A stretch of DNA of 32,000 nt, from NCBI GenBank assembly GCA_017609205.1, contig JAFCEL010000001.1:60001-92000 (forward strand), given 5' to 3'. This DNA is from Candidatus Saccharimonadota bacterium. GTDB taxonomy: Archaea; Nanobdellota; Nanobdellia; Pacearchaeales; GW2011-AR1. The position numbers and the translations under genes are program-made. Below are positions 2,732 through 15,910 of this stretch, piece after piece. Under the pieces are notes generated by a model. That model searched no databases. It was not told where the DNA came from and was given only the letters and a program-made list of their open reading frames with translations. Numbering within the stretch: the stretch's first letter is position 1; each line of letters opens with the position of its first letter.

Positions 2732-3931
2732 TTAAGAATTCTTAACATCTTTATTTAATGTATCAAGAAGTTCAAAAAATTCTTCTTTGCTTATTGTCTT
2801 GTCGCTTTCAGATAAACCAATTCTTTCTGCAAGCTTCCCTTTTTTCTTTAATGCTTGGATTGTTGGCAATTGCTCGTCATCCCAACCAGAATACTTTCCT
2901 TCCTTAATTCCTTTTGTAATTTCAGTTGAAGACAATCTCATTCCTTTAATATGCCATCTTCCTAAAAATCCTGTCCAAGGAACTCTTTTCCCTAAAACTT
3001 TGTAAATCATCTCTTGTCTTTTTGCATTGTCTCTATGGTCCTTTCCACGAATTATATGTGTCATCTTCATTTCAATATCGTCGACAGTTACAGCGAGATT
3101 CATTAGTGGCCAAACACGATATTTCTTCTTTTGTAGTGGATGGGGTGTCTCATTTATTCTTGCAAGAGGAAAATCCCTCATTGCAGGATTTTTATGATTC
3201 ATATCAGATTTAAATCTTAAAACAGCCTCGCCAGCCTCATAACCTCCTTTGTCCAACATCTTCTTCCATCTCTTTAAATTCTCTTTAATATCCAAATCCC
3301 TACAAGGACAATTTTTTCTTTCAGTGATAAATTTCTTAAATTTTTCAGTAGAACAAGTGCAAACATATGCTGAGTCTTTTTGAATTAACTTTGTAGCATA
3401 ATTATAATAAAGTTTCATCCTTTCTGACTGAATCACAATCTTTGCTTTCTTATTAAAAAGCCATTCAGAATCTTCTTTAATTAAATCATAAGCAGGAGGA
3501 TAAATATTCTCGGGATTTGTATCTTCTATTCTAACATAAAATTTTCCACCATATTTCTCAACATATAGAAAGGATATGGTTGAAGTTAATGCATGTCCAA
3601 TGTGAAAACCTCCTGACGGCGACGGAGCAATTCTCATAACAACACCTTTTTTAGAGACATTTGGAAGTTCAGGAAGACCTTCACGAACTTTTCTCTCAGA
3701 GGTCTTATCTTTTAGCTTTTCGAATTCTTTTTTCTGCTGTTCAATTGAAAGAGAATTTACTTCCCTTATGATTTTATTAATATCTTTTATGTATTTTTTG
3801 ATGTCCTCTCTTTTTAACCCTTCGTGGAATAATGAAGAAATAACACTTCCTATTTGAGCTTTACCGTCATGAGCAATTGCATTTTTCAAAGCATATGCTT
3901 TTGTTTTTTGCTTTAAATATCTCATAAACAA
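2732..3931 (-). CDS. gltX: archaeal-type glutamyl-tRNA synthetase catalytic core, lacking the C-terminal anticodon-binding domain
   Basis: Class I HIGH motif (APSPSGGFHIGHA). N-terminal YqeY/GatB-like ~95 aa (YALKNAIAHDGKAQIGSVIS), as in archaeal GluRS. Also RIEDTNPE, HIIRGKDH, an LSST loop and SGWDD. The ORF ends ~35 aa after SGWDD at TAA 2732-2734, only 10 bp from the tRNA-Asp 3' end. Confidence 0.85.
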   Translation of the reverse strand: MFMRYLKQKTKAYALKNAIAHDGKAQIGSVISSLFHEGLKREDIKKYIKDINKIIREVNSLSIEQQKKEFEKLKDKTSERKVREGLPELPNVSKKGVVMRIAPSPSGGFHIGHALTSTISFLYVEKYGGKFYVRIEDTNPENIYPPAYDLIKEDSEWLFNKKAKIVIQSERMKLYYNYATKLIQKDSAYVCTCSTEKFKKFITERKNCPCRDLDIKENLKRWKKMLDKGGYEAGEAVLRFKSDMNHKNPAMRDFPLARINETPHPLQKKKYRVWPLMNLAVTVDDIEMKMTHIIRGKDHRDNAKRQEMIYKVLGKRVPWTGFLGRWHIKGMRLSSTEITKGIKEGKYSGWDDEQLPTIQALKKKGKLAERIGLSESDKTISKEEFFELLDTLNKDVKNS

Positions 3932-3958
3932 AGAAGAAAGAGTAGTTAATAAATTTTC

Positions 3959-4285
3959 TCAAAACCGGTTTATGTCTGCTTTTCTTTCTAATAATTCAAC
4001 TCGTTGCTGAAGACGATAAATCTGATTTGAAAGATCCTCGAGCCTATTTGTTATGTCCATTAATCTTTTTGCAAGTCTTCTCCTTCTTTCATCACTACTC
4101 TCTGAAACATCAGAAGAGTCTTTTTGAGAAGAGGCAGTATTTGCAATAGCACTGAAAAAACCAAATCCACTAGTATTTTTCTCAGATGGTGAATTCTCAA
4201 CTTCTATTTCCTGTTCTTTTCTTGGAGTTGGATATCTCTCTGTTAAGTCAAGTATATCGCTCTTCTTTCTCCTGAAAATCCCCAT
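3959..4285 (-). CDS. small coiled-coil protein (109 aa from MGIFRRKK)
   Basis: The internal ATG at 4285 is preferred because the longer ORF (to 4378) would overlap the divergent gene start at 4361. Layout: N-terminal amphipathic basic segment, Ser/Asp-rich linker, C-terminal heptad-like helix (RLEDLSNQIYRLQQRVELLERK). Confidence 0.5.
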   Translation of the reverse strand: MGIFRRKKSDILDLTERYPTPRKEQEIEVENSPSEKNTSGFGFFSAIANTASSQKDSSDVSESSDERRRRLAKRLMDITNRLEDLSNQIYRLQQRVELLERKADINRF

Positions 4286-4360
4286 AGATATTAAATAATT
4301 AAATCTTTTTAAGATTTTGTAATCAGAATATTTTTTAAATATCAAATTGTTACCCTTATT

Positions 4361-5830
4361 ATGGCAACTGTCTCCCAAATCATTGCAACGATTAATCCTG
4401 ATTTGTATTATGCCGCATCAGGCGATGAAGAAGAGGCTGCTAAAAATCTAAAAGAGTTCAAGAAATTAATAGAAAAAAAAGGGTTTCAAGCAGCTTCTGA
4501 AAAAGCAAAACCAAAGCCTTATTCAGAAAATATAATAAAATATGATTCTGCAGTCGATCAATTAGAACCCCTGTATTTCTGGATAATTGATTTTATCAAC
4601 GATAGATTAGGTCTTGAAATTGAAAAACTTGCAGATAATTTTGTGTCATCTCCTGGTTCAGGACATTTTTCAGAATTAGGGGGAAAAGCAACTGCAATGC
4701 AACAACAAGGAACAAAAATTCTTGCAGATATTAATACTGTTCTCAGAAGTGTCTTGAATTTAATCTATGATTTGAAAGAATTCAGAATGCGCTTGGCTCA
4801 TTATGATGGATTGAAATCAGAGGATAAAGCAACACAAAATGCCTCACGCCTTGCATTAAAACAAATATGGATGGACAAAGTTGATATGCAGAAAGGCATG
4901 GGATCTATAAATGCTCTTACGACTGGGCAGCTGGGATTTCAAACATTAAGAGATGCTTTTCTTGCAGTAAATGAAGAAAAAGACGTCGATAAGTTAGACT
5001 TAAATGAAAGAGTTAAAAGAATTCTAAAACCAAGAATCCATGATTTTAATATATGGGTTAAAGAATCTGAAAAAGAATTGAGAAAAAGATACGAACTAGA
5101 GAGAAATTATCTTAAAAGCCAAGTTAATAGTTTGAAACTTTATTCTAGATGGGCAAAACCATATCTTAAGGCAGCGTCACAATTAGAACAAAAAGAGCCA
5201 GGAAGAAATCCCTCTTTTGTAAAGATATTTAATACAATTTTATTAGAACTAACAATTCTTGCTAAAAAACCTGTAACACCTCCGGAAGAGCGTGGGATGG
5301 ATAAAAAAAGAAAACTAAAGAGAAAATATTACAAATGCGTTTTGGTTGATTTTAATTTCCGAGGAATTCCCAGAAAAATTGGAGGGCAGGGACATTACTC
5401 TTTTGGGGGAAGAACAGAAATAAGATTTCAATCATATGCTCTTAACGAGGATGAATTAAAAAAATTAGATAAAGAATTGGAAAAAAATGATGTGGGGGAT
5501 GTGCTGAAGCTAATAGAGGGAATAACCGACGAAAGTTTAAGGAAAATACAAGAAGAGATTGATTTCTTTCTCGAAGAACAAGAAAAAGAAGAGAAAGAGA
5601 AGAAAAAACCAAAAGACACTTCAAACCCTTTCTTAGCTTTATTTGGTTTTTACAATAAGAAGGATGAAAAGAAAAAAGAAAGCACAAAAAAAACAGAAGA
5701 TAAAATAAGACCTGATGATTGGTTTGAAGCAAACCAGGTCAGAAAATATGCATTAGAAGAAGCAAAAGAGACTGCATTTAAGATATTTGATGTATATAAG
5801 AAAGTCCATAATATGGCAAGCTATACATAA
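4361..5830 (+). CDS. conserved-looking hypothetical protein, largely alpha-helical with a Lys/Glu-rich C-terminal insert
   Basis: 489-aa ORF with TTTTAAATAT box about 20-29 nt before the ATG (leaderless-like). No catalytic or nucleotide-binding motif recognised. Confidence 0.7.
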   Translation: MATVSQIIATINPDLYYAASGDEEEAAKNLKEFKKLIEKKGFQAASEKAKPKPYSENIIKYDSAVDQLEPLYFWIIDFINDRLGLEIEKLADNFVSSPGSGHFSELGGKATAMQQQGTKILADINTVLRSVLNLIYDLKEFRMRLAHYDGLKSEDKATQNASRLALKQIWMDKVDMQKGMGSINALTTGQLGFQTLRDAFLAVNEEKDVDKLDLNERVKRILKPRIHDFNIWVKESEKELRKRYELERNYLKSQVNSLKLYSRWAKPYLKAASQLEQKEPGRNPSFVKIFNTILLELTILAKKPVTPPEERGMDKKRKLKRKYYKCVLVDFNFRGIPRKIGGQGHYSFGGRTEIRFQSYALNEDELKKLDKELEKNDVGDVLKLIEGITDESLRKIQEEIDFFLEEQEKEEKEKKKPKDTSNPFLALFGFYNKKDEKKKESTKKTEDKIRPDDWFEANQVRKYALEEAKETAFKIFDVYKKVHNMASYT

Positions 5831-5871
5831 AAAAACTTATAAGCAGTATTTCCCTTAAATAAGCAAGGAAA

Positions 5872-6303
5872 ATGGGTGATAAATTTTCTTATGATTTAAT
5901 CAAGAGGAATATTAAGAAATTTGGAGGGAAATTAGAAAGAAAAGGGGCAGAAGCGAAATTAATTATGAAGGGAGAGGAAATCTCAATACCTGTCAGAAAT
6001 GGTTTTATTGATTTAGAAAGCATAGGTAAAGCAGCAAAATTTACGTCTGAACAAACTGGCAGAGATTATAATAGTTCTTTAAGAGAATTAATAAAAAAAC
6101 CAAATTTTTACTCAATAAGAACCCCTAATTTTATGAATGCTACTTTAGCAATTTTAATAGGGTGTGTGATCTTCTTAGGATTATCAAAAATGACTTCAAC
6201 AGCAGCTGTAATCGGTATCCCAGAATCAACAGCAAATACATGGTTAATCATAAGTGTTTTAGGAATACTTGGAATCATGATCTGCAAGTTGAGATGTAAA
6301 TAA
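5872..6303 (+). CDS. hypothetical protein, soluble N-domain plus two C-terminal TM helices
   Basis: 143-aa ORF 41 nt after the previous gene. The N-terminal ~55 aa are loosely HicA/YcfA-like in spacing (KKFGGKLERKG..ISIPVRNG), but the usual His is not seen. C-terminal hydrophobic segments are ATLAILIGCVIFLGL and WLIISVLGILGIMIC. Confidence 0.55.
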   Translation: MGDKFSYDLIKRNIKKFGGKLERKGAEAKLIMKGEEISIPVRNGFIDLESIGKAAKFTSEQTGRDYNSSLRELIKKPNFYSIRTPNFMNATLAILIGCVIFLGLSKMTSTAAVIGIPESTANTWLIISVLGILGIMICKLRCK

Positions 6304-10980: not shown

Positions 10981-11304
10981 TTACTCTATAAATTTCCTCA
11001 ATCTTGATTCTAATTCTTCTTCAGAAAGAGCACCAATAAAATTCTCGACAGGTTTTCCGTCTTTAAATATTATAAAATTAGGGATTGAGCTAACATTAAA
11101 TTTTCTTGCGAGACTTTCATTCTCTCCTACATTAACTTTTCCAAATTTTATTTTTCCCTCAAATTTTTCACTAAGATCCTCAATAATAGGTGCCATCATC
11201 ATACAAGGCATACACCATTCTGCAAAGAAATCAATCAGTGCAACACCTTCTTGAACAAAGCCTTCAAAATCACCTTCATTTAGTTCAGCAACTTTCTCTC
11301 CCAT
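10981..11304 (-). CDS. trxA: thioredoxin with atypical CMPC active site
   Basis: 107 aa with a thioredoxin-fold pattern: FFAEWCMPCMMMAPIIEDL..KFGKVNV..SIPNFIIFKDGKPV. Confidence 0.85.
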   Translation of the reverse strand: MGEKVAELNEGDFEGFVQEGVALIDFFAEWCMPCMMMAPIIEDLSEKFEGKIKFGKVNVGENESLARKFNVSSIPNFIIFKDGKPVENFIGALSEEELESRLRKFIE

Positions 11305-11334: not shown

Positions 11335-12561
11335 TTATTGAAGGAGAAATAATTTTTCTAATTCTTTCCTATACTCACTTAGATCAAGATTTTTTCTTGC
11401 AACACCTGATTCAATCGCTGATTTAGCTACTGAAAATGATACTTCTAATGCAACTTTTTTATCAAAAGGCGAAGGAATTATTTTTTCCCGAGTAAGATTC
11501 TCTCCTACAACCTTAGCAAGTGTCTTTGCAGCAGCAATCTTCATTTCTTCATTTATTTCTTTTGCTCTAACATCAAGAGCCCCCCTGAAAACAAATGGAA
11601 AAGCAAGAACGTTATTAACCTGGTTTGGATAATCACTTCTTCCTGTAGCAATGATAACATCTTTTCTTGTTTTTTTGGCAACCTCTGGTTTTATTTCTGG
11701 ATCAGGATTTGCCATTGCAAAGATAATAGGATTCTTATTCATTGATAAGAGCATATCAGGTGTGAAGACGTCTTTAACAGAAACGCCGACAAAGACATCT
11801 GAATTTACAATCGCTTCCTCGAGAGTCCTCAATTCTGTTTCAACTGCAAACTCTGCCTTGTATTTGTTTATATTCTCCCTTCCCTTATATATAACCCCTT
11901 TGCTGTCACACATAATAAGGTTGTTTCTTTTGACACCCAAATCACGAAACAATCTCGCACATGCAATTCCAGCAGCACCGGCTCCTAAAAAGACAACTTT
12001 AACATCCCCTATTTTTTTATCAGCAATCTTTAAGGCATTAATAAATCCAGCAGCAGAAACAATTGCAGTTCCATGCTGGTCGTCGTGGAAAACAGGAATA
12101 TCCAGAATTTTCTTCAACTTCTCTTCAATTTCAAAACACTCAGGAGCTTTTATGTCCTCTAAATTAATTCCCCCATAAGTAGGAGAGATTAATTTTACAA
12201 CATCCACAACTTTTTCAACGTCCTGTGAATCAATCAAAACATCAACTGCATCGATATCTCCGAATTTTTTAAATAAAACAGCTTTCCCCTCCATTACTGG
12301 CTTTCCTGCTAATACACCAATATTTCCCAAACCCAAAACAGCAGTTCCATTAGTAACAACAGCAACAGAGTTTCCTTTGTTAGTATAATCATATACTTTA
12401 TCAGGGTTTTCTTTTATAGCCAAACACGGTTCAGCAACTCCAGGAGTATAAGCCAGTGAAAGATGCTCTGCATTCTCGCATGGCTTTGTTATTATAGTTC
12501 CAATCTTACCAGGTCTTGAATTTTCCTGCTTACTATGATAATCCAATGCTTTCTTTTTCAT
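11335..12561 (-). CDS. NAD(P)-dependent malic enzyme (oxaloacetate-decarboxylating malate dehydrogenase), short form
   Basis: [39 protein letters not shown] and Rossmann [12 protein letters not shown]. The ATG overlaps the nrdG stop (ATGA at 12558-12561). Confidence 0.9.
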
Positions 12562-13256
12562 CTTATTCCAACATTTTCAAAATAATCTAATGCAATATGC
12601 ATCAGCCTTCTGAGATATTCTTCAGAGATATCTCTTTTAAATTTATAACTATTATCTATAAATTTTTGATTATTCTTAAATCCTTGCAAAAAGTATTTTG
12701 AAGGTTTTCTTCCACAAAGATTATTTAACCATTCCCCAATCTTCTTGATTTCCTCTTCATCATGGAACCCCTCGACAATTGTTGTTCTAAATTCATATGC
12801 TCCAAAATCACAAATTAATTTGATACTTTTCTCGATTTTGTCAATATCTATATTTTTTCCAACAACTCTCTCATAGTTATCTTTTCCTGATTTTATATCC
12901 ATAGCAATGTAATTAACTAGATTTTCTTCAACTAATTCCTTAATTGCATCAGGAAAACAGCCATTTGTATCTATCTTGATGTCATAACCGAATTCTTTTA
13001 TTTTTCTAAGGAAAGTCTTATCAATATCCAAGAGGGGTTCTCCTCCTGTTATGCAGACTCCGTCGAGATATTTCTTTCTATCTTTAAGAAAATCTAAAAC
13101 TTCTTTTTCAGAATATATTCTTCCAAGAGGCTCGATTACAAGCTCTGGGTTATGGCAAAAGCCACATCTTAAGTTACAACCATAAAAAAATAGAGTGCAA
13201 GCTAATTTACCTGGATAATCTATTAAAGTAAGTTTTTGTATTCCTGCTATTTTCAT
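12558..13256 (-). CDS. nrdG: anaerobic ribonucleotide reductase activating protein (radical SAM)
   Basis: CNLRCGFCHN radical-SAM cluster motif. MKIAGIQKLTLIDYPGK N-terminus is typical of NrdG. Alternative TTG start at 13268 overlaps the TGA of the upstream 51-aa ORF. Confidence 0.9.
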   Translation of the reverse strand: MKIAGIQKLTLIDYPGKLACTLFFYGCNLRCGFCHNPELVIEPLGRIYSEKEVLDFLKDRKKYLDGVCITGGEPLLDIDKTFLRKIKEFGYDIKIDTNGCFPDAIKELVEENLVNYIAMDIKSGKDNYERVVGKNIDIDKIEKSIKLICDFGAYEFRTTIVEGFHDEEEIKKIGEWLNNLCGRKPSKYFLQGFKNNQKFIDNSYKFKRDISEEYLRRLMHIALDYFENVGIR

Positions 13257-13264
13257 TTGAAAAA

Positions 13265-13420
13265 TCAATTAATATTGCCAACTTCAAAAACCTTTCTTTG
13301 TTCAAATTCTGCTTGTTTTCCTTCATTCCATCCTTTTGTTGGTCTTATATAACCAACGACTCTTGAAAAAATTTCACATTCGGTTCTTTTTGGGCTGTTT
13401 TCTCCTTTCTCTTCAATCAT
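13265..13420 (-). CDS. 51-aa ORF encoding the NrdD C-terminal glycyl-radical domain (separate from the NrdD body)
   Basis: Not in the ORF track (<60 aa). GGAGGT (13424-13429) sits 3 nt upstream of ATG 13420. Translation: MIEEKGENSPKRTECEIFSRVVGYIRPTKGWNEGKQAEFEQRKVFEVGNIN. It contains the class III RNR RVxGY glycyl-radical loop and a WNxGKxxE tail. In frame with nrdD, 9 nt after its TAG. Confidence 0.75.
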   Translation of the reverse strand: MIEEKGENSPKRTECEIFSRVVGYIRPTKGWNEGKQAEFEQRKVFEVGNIN

Positions 13421-13429
13421 TTTTACCTC

Positions 13430-15469
13430 CTAATTTTTTATTTCAGCAGGATTAAGTAATCCGCGCTCAATCAATTCTGCATCACACTTAGGACAATATC
13501 TATGTTCTCCTGCAAGATATCCATGTTTTGGGCAGACTGAGAAAGTTGGGGTTATTGTAAAATAAGGAAGATTAAATCTTTCTGCAATTTTCTTTATAAG
13601 AAGTTTGATATTTTCCTTTGGCAGTCTTTCTCCAATGAAAGAATGAAATACTGTTCCTCCAGTATATTTAATCTGTAAGTGGTCCTGCAATTCAAGTGCC
13701 TCAAAGAGATCGTCTGTGTAATCAACAGGGAGTTGGGTTGAATTTGTATAAAAAGGCTTTGCATTCTTATCTCTTATTGCCTTTTCATTAGCTGCAATTA
13801 TTCTTCCTAATCTTTGTTTATCTATTCTTGCGAATCTATAAGAAGTCCCCTCACCAGGTGTTGCTTCAAGATTGTAAATATTACCTGTTTCGTTCTGGAA
13901 CTCCTCGAGTTTCTTCCTCATAAAGTCTAAAACCTTCTCAGCAAATGCTCTCCCTCTTGGAGTGGCTATATTTTCTCCAGGCATGAAATTCATTATTGCT
14001 TCATTCATTCCAAGCAAACCAATCGTAGCAAAATGATTTTTCCAATATTCTCCGAATCTCTGATGAACTTTTCTAAGATAAAATTTTGAGTAAGGATAAA
14101 GACCAATCTCAGTGAATTTCTCAATTGTTTTTCTTTTTATTTCTAAACTCTCTTTTGCAAGCTCCATAAGATTATTAAGTTTCTCAAAGAAATTTTGTTC
14201 GTCAGTTGATGTGAAACCTAAGCGAGGCATATTTATTGTTACGACCCCTATTGAACCTGTTTGAGGATTTGCACCGAATAATCCTCCCCCCCTTTTTCTG
14301 AGCTGTGTTTGGTCCAGCCTTAATCTGCAACACATACTTCTTGCATCTTCTGGTTTCATATCAGAATTAATAAAATTTGAAAAATAAGGAATTCCATATT
14401 TTGCAGTCATTTCCCAAATAGCATCATAGTTTGGGCTATCCCAGTCAAAGTCTCTTGTGATATTATATGTTGGAATAGGGAATGTGAAAACCCTTCCATT
14501 AGCATCGCCTTCCATCATAACTTCTGCAAATGCTCTATTAAAGACATCCATCTCATTCTGAAACTCCTTGTAAGTTTCTTTCTGGGGTTTTCCTCCTATA
14601 ATAACGGGCTCATTCTTCATATAATCAGGGACCTTTAAATCCATTGTCACATTTGTGAAAGGGGTTTGAAACCCTACCCTCGTCGGAACAGCCATATTAA
14701 ACATAAATTCCTGAATTGCTTGTTTGACTTCTTTATAGGAGAGATCATCATATCTTATGAAAGGTGCTAAGAGCGAATCAAAATTGGAAAATGCCTGAGC
14801 ACCTGCTGTCTCACCCTGAAGAGTATAAAAGAAATTGACAATCTGCCCTAATGCAGAACGAAAATGTTTTGGAGGAGCACAAACAATTTTCTCAGGAGCC
14901 CCGCGGAATCCTGTTATTAGTAAATCCTTTAAATCCCACCCAACACAATAAGCTCCAAGAGTATCTAAGTCATGAATATGCAAATCTCCACTTTCATGAA
15001 CTTTTCTTACTGCTTCTGGATAAATTCTTCTCCTCCAATAATTTGAAATAATCCTCGTCGCTATATAGTTATTTAATCCTTGCAAAGAGAAACTTTTATT
15101 TGAATTTTCCTTGACTCTCCAATCATTTCCTCCAATATAATCTTCAATAGCTTCAATAGTATCAAACATTCCCTTAACATCTCTTAACTCCTGCCTACTT
15201 TTTCTATAAAGAATATATGACTTTGCAACTTTTGCGTGTCCTTCTTCAATAAGTGTTTTTTCTACTAAATCCTGAACTTCTTCAACTTCTGGAATTCCTT
15301 TATCACCATATTTTTTCTCAAGTTGCTCAACAACAAGTTCAGATAATCTCCCTGCACGCTCCCGGTTTGTTCCTCCAACAGATTTAACTGCCTTCCAGAT
15401 TGCCTCTGTAATCTTCTCTTTATCAAATAAGACAACATTTCCATCTCGTTTTCGAATTTTTGTTACCAT
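13430..15469 (-). CDS. nrdD: anaerobic (class III) ribonucleoside-triphosphate reductase, large body without glycyl-radical loop
   Basis: N-terminal ATP-cone (VTKIRKRDGNVVLFDKEKI). Core motifs ..SMCCRLRLD.., GSIGVVTINMPR, NLEATPGEG and C-terminal Zn site CPKH..CPKC. Ends at TAG 13430-13432 before any RVxGY motif. Confidence 0.9.
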   Translation of the reverse strand: MVTKIRKRDGNVVLFDKEKITEAIWKAVKSVGGTNRERAGRLSELVVEQLEKKYGDKGIPEVEEVQDLVEKTLIEEGHAKVAKSYILYRKSRQELRDVKGMFDTIEAIEDYIGGNDWRVKENSNKSFSLQGLNNYIATRIISNYWRRRIYPEAVRKVHESGDLHIHDLDTLGAYCVGWDLKDLLITGFRGAPEKIVCAPPKHFRSALGQIVNFFYTLQGETAGAQAFSNFDSLLAPFIRYDDLSYKEVKQAIQEFMFNMAVPTRVGFQTPFTNVTMDLKVPDYMKNEPVIIGGKPQKETYKEFQNEMDVFNRAFAEVMMEGDANGRVFTFPIPTYNITRDFDWDSPNYDAIWEMTAKYGIPYFSNFINSDMKPEDARSMCCRLRLDQTQLRKRGGGLFGANPQTGSIGVVTINMPRLGFTSTDEQNFFEKLNNLMELAKESLEIKRKTIEKFTEIGLYPYSKFYLRKVHQRFGEYWKNHFATIGLLGMNEAIMNFMPGENIATPRGRAFAEKVLDFMRKKLEEFQNETGNIYNLEATPGEGTSYRFARIDKQRLGRIIAANEKAIRDKNAKPFYTNSTQLPVDYTDDLFEALELQDHLQIKYTGGTVFHSFIGERLPKENIKLLIKKIAERFNLPYFTITPTFSVCPKHGYLAGEHRYCPKCDAELIERGLLNPAEIKN

Positions 15470-15910
15470 TTACCTTAAACCTCTTAGTTCTTTTCTAAAA
15501 TCTTTTACATCTTGAAAATCGCGATAAACAGATGCGAAGCGAATATAAGCAACATTATCCAGCTTCTTTATTTTTTTCATAACAATCTCTCCTATTACAG
15601 AGCTTTTTATCTCTTTTTTTCCTTTTTTTCTCAGTTGTTCTTCTACTTCGTCTACCATTTTATTAATTTTATCTTTTGGAACAGGCCTCTTTTCAAATGC
15701 CTTTTCAACCCCCCTTACTAATTTCTCCTTATCAAATTTTTCACGTCTTTTATCTTTTTTTATAATCCAAAGGTTATTTTGAGACAACCTCTCATAGGTT
15801 GTAAATCTTTTTTTGCACTTTAAACATTCCCTCCTTCGCCTTATCCCTTCAGGAGAATTTCTTTTATCAGTCACTCTTGATTTCTGACTTGAACAATAAG
15901 GACATTTCAT
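15470..15910 (-). CDS. nrdR: NrdR transcriptional repressor (zinc ribbon + ATP-cone)
   Basis: MKCPYCSSQKSRVTDKR..CLKCKKRFTTYE zinc ribbon followed by an ATP-cone (KKDKRREKFDKEKLVRGVEKA..). ATG at 15910 preferred over 15931. The stop abuts the nrdD start (15469/15470). Confidence 0.9.
   Translation of the reverse strand: MKCPYCSSQKSRVTDKRNSPEGIRRRRECLKCKKRFTTYERLSQNNLWIIKKDKRREKFDKEKLVRGVEKAFEKRPVPKDKINKMVDEVEEQLRKKGKKEIKSSVIGEIVMKKIKKLDNVAYIRFASVYRDFQDVKDFRKELRGLR

Follow-up and report, generated by a model that had tools for sequence, protein, structure and literature searches.

The window analysed here is a 32-kb stretch of contig JAFCEL010000001.1 (assembly GCA_017609205.1, Pacearchaeales in the GTDB lineage) that carries, within an operon encoded on the minus strand, the genes of a class III ribonucleotide reductase (RNR), NrdD, and of its activase, NrdG. 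The NrdD sequence is found on two consecutive open reading frames (ORFs). The large chain, alpha, ends at a TAG codon just past its zinc site and lacks the glycyl-radical loop. Nine bases after this stop (GAGGTAAAA), an ATG at 13420 in the same frame as alpha opens a short ORF of 51 codons, the small chain, beta, with the translation MIEEKGENSPKRTECEIFSRVVGYIRPTKGWNEGKQAEFEQRKVFEVGNIN. The truncation of NrdD, the GGAGGT motif with its ATG and the presence of a radical-glycine loop and a WN.GK..E tail on the short ORF had been noted in a preliminary description made from the sequence alone; direct reading of the ORFs and the profile matches given below bear out all three. The same description had the TGA of beta overlapping the start of nrdG. 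This is true of the mechanically assigned TTG start (13268) only; the likely nrdG start, as judged from the profile and from relatives, is the ATG at 13256, 8 nucleotides (nt) past the beta TGA. A scan of the coding strand for consensus terminators revealed no terminator-like site in the alpha-beta interval. An identical pair of alpha and beta proteins is present on three contigs from two sources; the public contigs with these exact proteins measure up to 511 kb. The coordinates of all features are collected in Table 1.

Position of the division

The Pfam family NRDD (PF13597, 562 positions) is matched from position 1 to 529 by alpha (E 3.9e-180, 600.7 bits) and from 531 to 562 by beta (E 1.9e-9, 37.2 bits, gathering cut-off 26.2). 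The NCBIfam model NF006126 (684 positions) is covered from 2 to 656 by alpha and from 641 to 683 by beta. Alpha scores 1037.7 bits with this model (cut-off 548) and 517 bits with TIGR02487 (cut-off 326). When aligned with the NrdD of Thermotoga maritima (4COI), alpha is matched through residue 611, which belongs to the ribbon's last CxxC, whereas residues 613-645, RIVGY included, are matched by the core of beta; Gly23 of beta (SRVVGY) aligns with the glycine of that motif. Segments that are contiguous in 4COI are thus parted here by about 32 residues, made up of the alpha tail and the beta lead, plus a stop codon. Alpha ends 17 residues past the CPKH...CPKC zinc site and bears no RxxGY motif. 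The break sits exactly at the boundary between zinc ribbon and glycine loop, where the preliminary description had expected the profiles to place it.

The Pfam domains of alpha are the ATP-cone (PF03477) and NRDD only. An alignment of 30 relatives shows no variation in the finger loop SMC380C381RLR, at C175 or in the zinc ligands. In the solved NrdD 9d3x the counterpart of C381 is the cysteine of PMGCRS; by what is established for NrdD, C381 would be the site of the thiyl radical. C646, H649, C659 and C662 align with the T. maritima ribbon and form a predicted zinc-binding ribbon. The invariance of the catalytic cysteines means that alpha is not decaying. The features by which a class III RNR is recognized are present (profile matches, finger-loop cysteine, ribbon and a nearby nrdG), with the exception of an RxxGY motif on the same chain.

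Conservation of the split

The 120 closest homologues of alpha (74-82% identity) bear the names Pacearchaeota, Woesearchaeota and Nanoarchaeota (DPANN archaea). In 115 of them alpha is without the loop and ends 8-112 residues after C-x2-H...C-x2-C, and the remaining five are single-chain enzymes; judged from these sequences, the split is the norm for this archaeal clade. The tails of the 115 split forms (8-112 residues) are unalignable and carry a net negative charge in 90% of cases. The leads of beta are basic, 79% being positively charged, which hints that an acidic alpha tail and a basic beta lead may aid association of the chains. A submotif resembling [AST][NRTD]R[AST]Q...IDA occurs in 23 of the 115 tails (P0025, P0034, P0038, P0050, P0093 and others), and 14 of the 115 end in GG[DE]xxG. 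Some split alphas contain LAGLIDADG inteins in the barrel region, namely those of loci L004-L007 (1488 residues) and the homologues P0083 and P0106.

Eighty genome loci were classified by regular expression, reading of the C-termini, ORF listing and tblastn. L028 and L090 are among the unsplit loci, and L050 stops at the contig edge. Junctions were compared in 27 cellular loci, all independent and all including DNA downstream, and in every one a beta gene accompanies a truncated alpha. This recurrence of a small ORF by a truncated NrdD in every related locus examined far exceeds chance. The stop codon of alpha is TAA in 14 of these loci, TGA in nine and TAG in four. Relative to alpha, beta lies in frame 0 in five loci, +1 in 14 and +2 in eight. 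Beta has translation signals of its own: its start is ATG in 25 of the 27, and 19 junctions have a match of at least 5 nt to the Shine-Dalgarno (SD) sequence at a spacing of 3-12 nt, a number that rises to 25 if a match of 4 nt suffices. The distance from the alpha stop to the beta start is between -20 and +144 nt in most relatives, and overlapping junctions occur, such as TAATG in locus L008. Since stops and frames vary in this way among relatives, the in-frame TAG of the window is a coincidence. Five of the 39 ORFs of the window end in TAG, four of them besides alpha.

In the cultured Halanaerobium saccharolyticum and in a metagenome-assembled genome (MAG) of Bacillota, the order is alpha, nrdG, beta, and beta is more than 800 nt away from alpha. 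With nrdG between the two pieces, co-linear read-through or frameshifting is impossible there. The arrangement is represented by loci L085 and L039. The split enzyme of H. saccharolyticum occupies positions 2986-6016 of locus L085 (NZ_SNWX01000002.1); its alpha has 686 residues, and its beta is the 44-residue protein WP_133513801.1. The Halanaerobium beta cluster has 79 members across several species of the genus. The preliminary description had asked whether relatives keep the stop, SD motif and ATG; the stop and small gene prove to be universal in the 27 loci, and the SD and ATG usual. The scale of the phenomenon had not been foreseen there, with the split as the norm of a clade, its occurrence in a cultured bacterium and orphan copies in viruses.

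The small radical peptide

A search with the 51-residue peptide retrieved eleven other free-standing peptides of 43-77 residues. The twelve have in common the motif E[IV][FY]SRVVGYIRP..WNEGK..E...R, with 17 invariant residues (n = 12). Beta thus consists of a short basic lead and a minimal glycyl-radical module, (C)E[IV][FY]SRVVGYIRP..WNEGK..E...R. Peptides found in a cellular context adjoin an alpha that ends after the zinc ribbon, followed by nrdG. For the 28-codon core of beta in the 27 loci, pN is 0.23 as against a median pS of 0.88 (saturated), and dN/dS has a median of 0.19 wherever dS takes a finite value. Beta is under purifying selection.

A profile built from the twelve peptides was searched against 1.84 billion representative proteins and matched 4,779 clusters at E <= 1e-3, of which 2,067 at E <= 1e-10. 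Among the best 150 matches, 149 are 41-149 residues long; 139 of these start with Met and 144 have no upstream zinc ribbon. Being short, Met-initiated and without a ribbon, they are not fragments of long genes. In PHROGs no dedicated family was found; the peptide matched, and only weakly, the C-terminal part of phrog_487 and the function-unknown family phrog_4132. A cysteine precedes E[VI][FY]SR in 128 of 143 peptides, and Thr or Pro stands in its place in 15. A role of this cysteine as an inter-chain zinc ligand was considered; given its replacement in 15 of 143 peptides, it is judged non-essential. Three small proteins (P0133, P0138 and P0178) contain a tandem double glycine-loop motif, which could be an assembly artefact or a real duplication.

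Viral copies

The viral set comprised the 80 best IMG/VR loci (L095-L174). In 61 of them a short ORF carries the glycine loop, and neither a large NrdD nor nrdG lies within some 6 kb of it; a split pair is present in three viral loci. A scan for alpha recovered none on the 61 orphan contigs, the same scan having re-found seven of the 16 contigs with a single-chain NrdD. Terminase and portal genes adjoin the viral small gene. The viral peptides occur in a minimal form of about 45 residues or in a form of about 110-170 residues with a CxxC...CxxC ribbon of its own. The virus ANMV-1 (KP703175.1, 25525-25959) carries a ribbon-bearing copy of 144 residues, AJP62049.1, annotated as 'anaerobic ribonucleoside triphosphate reductase'; the annotation treats this copy as a full enzyme. 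No large NrdD or activase is annotated in the 38.5-kb ANMV-1 record. Orphan-peptide loci besides the IMG/VR set are L010, L011, L012 and L014. On the virus-like contig of L010 (2525-3986), an HNH endonuclease gene comes after an array of 12 tRNAs and lies directly upstream of the gene for the orphan peptide; the endonuclease could offer a clue to the mobility of such genes or to the origin of the split.

Evolution of the split

A neighbour-joining distance tree of 101 alpha cores was computed and bootstrapped. The DPANN clade (bootstrap 100/100) is almost wholly split, with a few single-chain forms nested within it. Split lineages also occur elsewhere in the tree, in Micrarchaeota, two archaeal lineages, Patescibacteria, Acetothermia, Halanaerobiales and a MAG labelled Gammaproteobacteria. 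The split has been gained or lost repeatedly: every bootstrap tree requires at least seven transitions between split and unsplit states, with a median of 10. A single origin is not claimed, the split forms being non-monophyletic. As read from the tree, the boundary between zinc ribbon and glycine loop behaves as a module border that has been cut repeatedly and probably also rejoined repeatedly. Among the nested single-chain forms, P0108 and P0047 keep the tail-plus-lead sequence and look like re-fusions of an alpha tail with a beta lead, and P0096, P0116 and P0130 have a short linker of ancestral type, C-x3-CEVYSR.

Interpretation

The catalytic polypeptide of this class III RNR is, with high confidence, naturally divided into two gene products, alpha and beta. 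A genuine two-piece enzyme with re-initiation at the second start was one of three explanations offered in the preliminary description, and it is strongly supported by conservation, reading frames and selection. The two chains would function as a non-covalent α/β enzyme in which beta is activated by NrdG. Four other explanations were weighed against a natural division. Read-through or recoding of the TAG, which would yield one NrdD of 734 residues, agrees with the position of beta in the window, in frame with alpha and just 9 nt downstream. It is nevertheless very improbable and is contradicted by the relatives: in-frame junctions amount to only five of 27, roughly the third that chance would give, the stops are mixed with no conserved single in-frame stop, overlaps occur at several junctions, and in Halanaerobiales the two genes have nrdG between them. 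In the window itself, TAG terminates four other ORFs and beta has its own SD motif and ATG. In a metagenome assembly where a single stop codon parts two pieces of one known protein, it might be suspected that the gene is in truth intact and wrongly sequenced or assembled, or that it is a fresh pseudogene broken by a recent nonsense mutation. There is practically no chance that this is so, given the same pair on three contigs from two sources, the cut at the same boundary in 115 of 120 relatives, the extra residues of tail and lead at the break compared with single-chain enzymes, the conserved dedicated SD and ATG and the strong purifying selection on both pieces.

Post-translational joining of the chains, through a split intein or some other kind of ligation, would likewise give a single working chain. 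Inteins are indeed common in this gene family, as the LAGLIDADG elements mentioned above attest; the window alpha, however, has no intein domain, its 17-residue tail is variable and of low complexity, and no conserved His-Asn stands ahead of a nucleophile. The beta leads have 5-15 residues, the shortest 5-6 (MEFKGTKCE, MVKTKCE), and offer no space for a C-intein of about 35 residues, so that such joining is extremely unlikely. A fourth alternative regards beta as an accessory (a spare part, a regulator or a decoy for the activase), with alpha inactive or obtaining its radical otherwise. Viruses do carry the peptide alone, in the manner of the accessory proteins GrcA and T4 Y06I of pyruvate formate-lyase (PFL) (PMC8683613). 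Against this stand the constant pairing of cellular beta with a loop-less alpha (27 of 27 loci), the invariant catalytic cysteines of alpha and the lack of any other radical generator in the operon. We know of no class III RNR that does without a glycyl radical. An accessory role is accordingly improbable.

Several points weigh against a natural division into two working subunits. The production of beta, its activation and its binding to alpha are predicted from sequence. The genome was covered over 32 kb, and a complete NrdD or another RNR elsewhere lies outside this scope. The structure model of the natural single-chain relative P0108, made from a shallow alignment, is poor (mean predicted local distance difference test 63, predicted template modelling score 0.51), and nothing is concluded from it. 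The tree is distance-based, which makes the number and direction of fissions and fusions approximate. The open-access and bioRxiv literature yielded no account of a class III RNR split in this way or of an autonomous radical peptide of NrdD type, and a precedent in a subscription journal is possible.

On the reading of a naturally divided enzyme, beta would be a separate translation product within the operon, initiated at its own SD and ATG, and NrdG would abstract the pro-S hydrogen of Gly23. The activated peptide would dock non-covalently in the alpha barrel, at the site held by the covalent radical domain in the NrdD of T4, T. maritima and Prevotella copri. The Gly23 radical would then generate the thiyl radical of Cys381, with which nucleotide reduction would begin. 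Electrons would probably be delivered via thioredoxin. Reduction of the thioredoxin type is suggested, somewhat less firmly, by the Cys-Cys pair of the finger loop together with the conserved genes for thioredoxin and malic enzyme; the NrdD2 literature speaks for it besides synteny. As to the benefit of the arrangement, it may be speculated that the division turns the portion of the enzyme that is oxygen-labile and self-cleaving into a cheap and exchangeable cartridge of 5 kDa that is easy for the activase to reach.

A wider proposal is put forward tentatively and with slightly less than even confidence, namely that the NrdD-type peptides make up a class of 'radical cartridge' microproteins that is large and has gone unrecognised. 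Where NrdD is split in cells (DPANN archaea, Micrarchaeota, some Patescibacteria, Halanaerobiales and others), the peptides would be an obligatory, exchangeable radical subunit. The viral orphans would re-arm the host alpha, or an oxygen-cleaved full-length NrdD, by means of the host activase and would in this way boost the supply of deoxyribonucleoside triphosphates during infection.

Comparison with known systems

Glycyl-radical enzymes (GREs) are, to our knowledge, thought to carry the radical on the catalytic chain, the only known exception being GrcA and Y06I for PFL. The Escherichia coli protein GrcA/YfiD and the phage T4 protein Y06I are, like beta, small free-standing carriers of a glycyl-radical loop for a GRE. 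The likeness extends to presumed activation by the radical-SAM activase of the parent enzyme, to insertion into the barrel of the large chain and to the existence of phage copies. GrcA differs in being homologous to the C-terminus of PFL (PF01228 / IPR011140), whereas beta matches the C-terminus of NrdD only; a Pfam scan of beta at E <= 1 returned NRDD and no PF01228. It is also larger, about 14 kDa against about 5-6 kDa for beta. Furthermore, the PFL that GrcA serves as a spare part possesses a loop itself, whereas the alpha described here has none, so that beta would be obligatory. The analogy with GrcA/YfiD drawn in the preliminary description therefore stands as a comparison of how the two may work, and fails as an assignment to the same family. 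By the same analogy, the viral orphan copies might act as spare parts.

The single-chain NrdD and NrdG systems of phage T4, E. coli, T. maritima (4COI) and P. copri (8P23) have the same fold, ATP-cone, finger-loop cysteine, ribbon, RxxGY motif and adjacent nrdG. In the characterised single-chain enzymes the ribbon and the glycine loop are contiguous (residues 611 to 613 in T. maritima), whereas in the present locus they are set apart by an acidic tail, a stop codon and a second start. The class II RNR NrdJa/NrdJb of Pseudomonas aeruginosa and of the Thermus phage phiYS40 likewise has its catalytic subunit on two consecutive ORFs, translated as two polypeptides with the C-terminal module on the second (PMC4520616; PMC9669993; PMC3653736). 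It is B12-dependent, NrdJb is large, and the detached part is a cysteine-rich zinc-finger domain that shuttles reductant, not a radical element. Broken RNR genes are also known as phage 'genes in pieces'. These include nrdA-a/nrdA-b of Aeh1, split by mobE, the nrdD genes of T4, Lactococcus phage 949 and Clostridium phage c-st, interrupted by introns or inteins, and the fragmented nrdD of phiAS4; nrdD is the RNR gene most often interrupted in phages (PMC3653736). The phage splits are due to mobile introns, inteins and homing endonucleases, or to unexplained fragmentation, lie at other positions and are lineage-specific, whereas the boundary described here is fixed across phyla. No mobile element is present at the 9-nt junction of the window, and an HNH gene beside the small ORF was seen only in the viral locus L010. 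Neither NrdJa/NrdJb nor the phage splits detach the radical element at a conserved boundary.

Spare parts have been validated only for PFL, and the matter is treated as undetermined for other GREs, in a study of 2021 (PMC8683613) and in a GRE review of June 2026 (PMC13450708). If the wider proposal is true, the peptides would be the first case outside PFL of a radical domain that serves as a spare part or can be detached, and the smallest known protein carrier of a radical. A class III RNR with its radical glycine on a separate peptide of about 5 kDa would give the open spare-part question a natural non-PFL example as its answer. Oxygen damage would hit only the peptide and spare the chain of about 80 kDa, repair consisting of a new peptide. 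How the activase gains access to a loop that normally lies hidden inside the barrel has long been puzzling; an activase substrate of 44-51 residues suits co-crystallisation, nuclear magnetic resonance and electron paramagnetic resonance. The split enzyme of cultured Halanaerobium opens the system to testing now. The viral orphan peptides are candidates for a new class of auxiliary genes. Peptides of this kind are already in RefSeq and UniProt under automatic names, WP_133513801.1 being an example. A large RNR phylogeny dropped sequences shorter than 400 residues (PMC9531940); with such length cut-offs, the peptide is filtered out of surveys while alpha is labelled a complete enzyme.

Operon layout and other features of the window

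The genes of the operon follow each other in the order nrdR, nrdD-alpha, nrdD-beta, nrdG, malic enzyme, thioredoxin, and this order recurs in several relatives. The position of nrdR directly upstream of nrdD is kept in L002, L008 and L013; the NrdR repressor encoded ahead of nrdD in these operons of DPANN archaea is of bacterial type. The match of the activase to TIGR02495 scores 195.9 bits (cut-off 131). A malic enzyme gene follows nrdG in the window and in L004-L009 and L013, and is itself followed by a thioredoxin gene in the window and in L004-L007. The two enzymes may constitute a supply line of reductant from NADPH to thioredoxin for the reductase.

Table 1. Features of the split nrdD operon, with positions in the window
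Feature	Position	Strand	Evidence or remarks
nrdR (Zn-ribbon and ATP-cone repressor), first gene of the operon	15470..15910	-	called gene; PF22811, PF03477
nrdD large chain (alpha), 679 residues	13430..15469	-	ATP-cone, catalytic barrel and zinc ribbon; without glycyl-radical loop
Cys380-Cys381 codons in SMCCRLR, finger-loop cysteines, putative thiyl-radical site	14327..14332	-	invariant in 30/30 relatives
Zinc ribbon C646-x2-H649 ... C659-x2-C662	13484..13534	-	four residues invariant in alignment
C-terminal tail of alpha, 17 residues, acidic, variable	13433..13483	-	comparison with 115 relatives
TAG stop of alpha	13430..13432	-	direct reading
GGAGGT, SD-like motif, 4 nt before ATG	13425..13430	-	direct reading; shares last base of TAG
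nrdD small chain (beta), 51 residues, autonomous glycyl-radical peptide	13265..13420	-	PF13597; called gene in source record
Gly23 codon in SRVVGY, predicted radical glycine	13352..13354	-	invariant among aligned peptides
nrdG, radical-SAM activase, 232 residues	12558..13256	-	TIGR02495 NrdG2, PF04055
NAD(P)-malic enzyme, downstream neighbour	11335..12561	-	PF00390, PF03949
Thioredoxin, downstream neighbour, possible reductant	10981..11304	-	PF00085, E 2.1e-27

The G+C content of the window is 32%. A diphthamide synthase is also encoded in it. Taken with the names of the closest homologues and with the intron-containing tRNA, these features agree with a DPANN archaeon. An intron-containing tRNA of 149 nt is located at 436-584 on the plus strand (Rfam, 49.8 bits); it is absent from the ARAGORN output and fits an archaeal genome.

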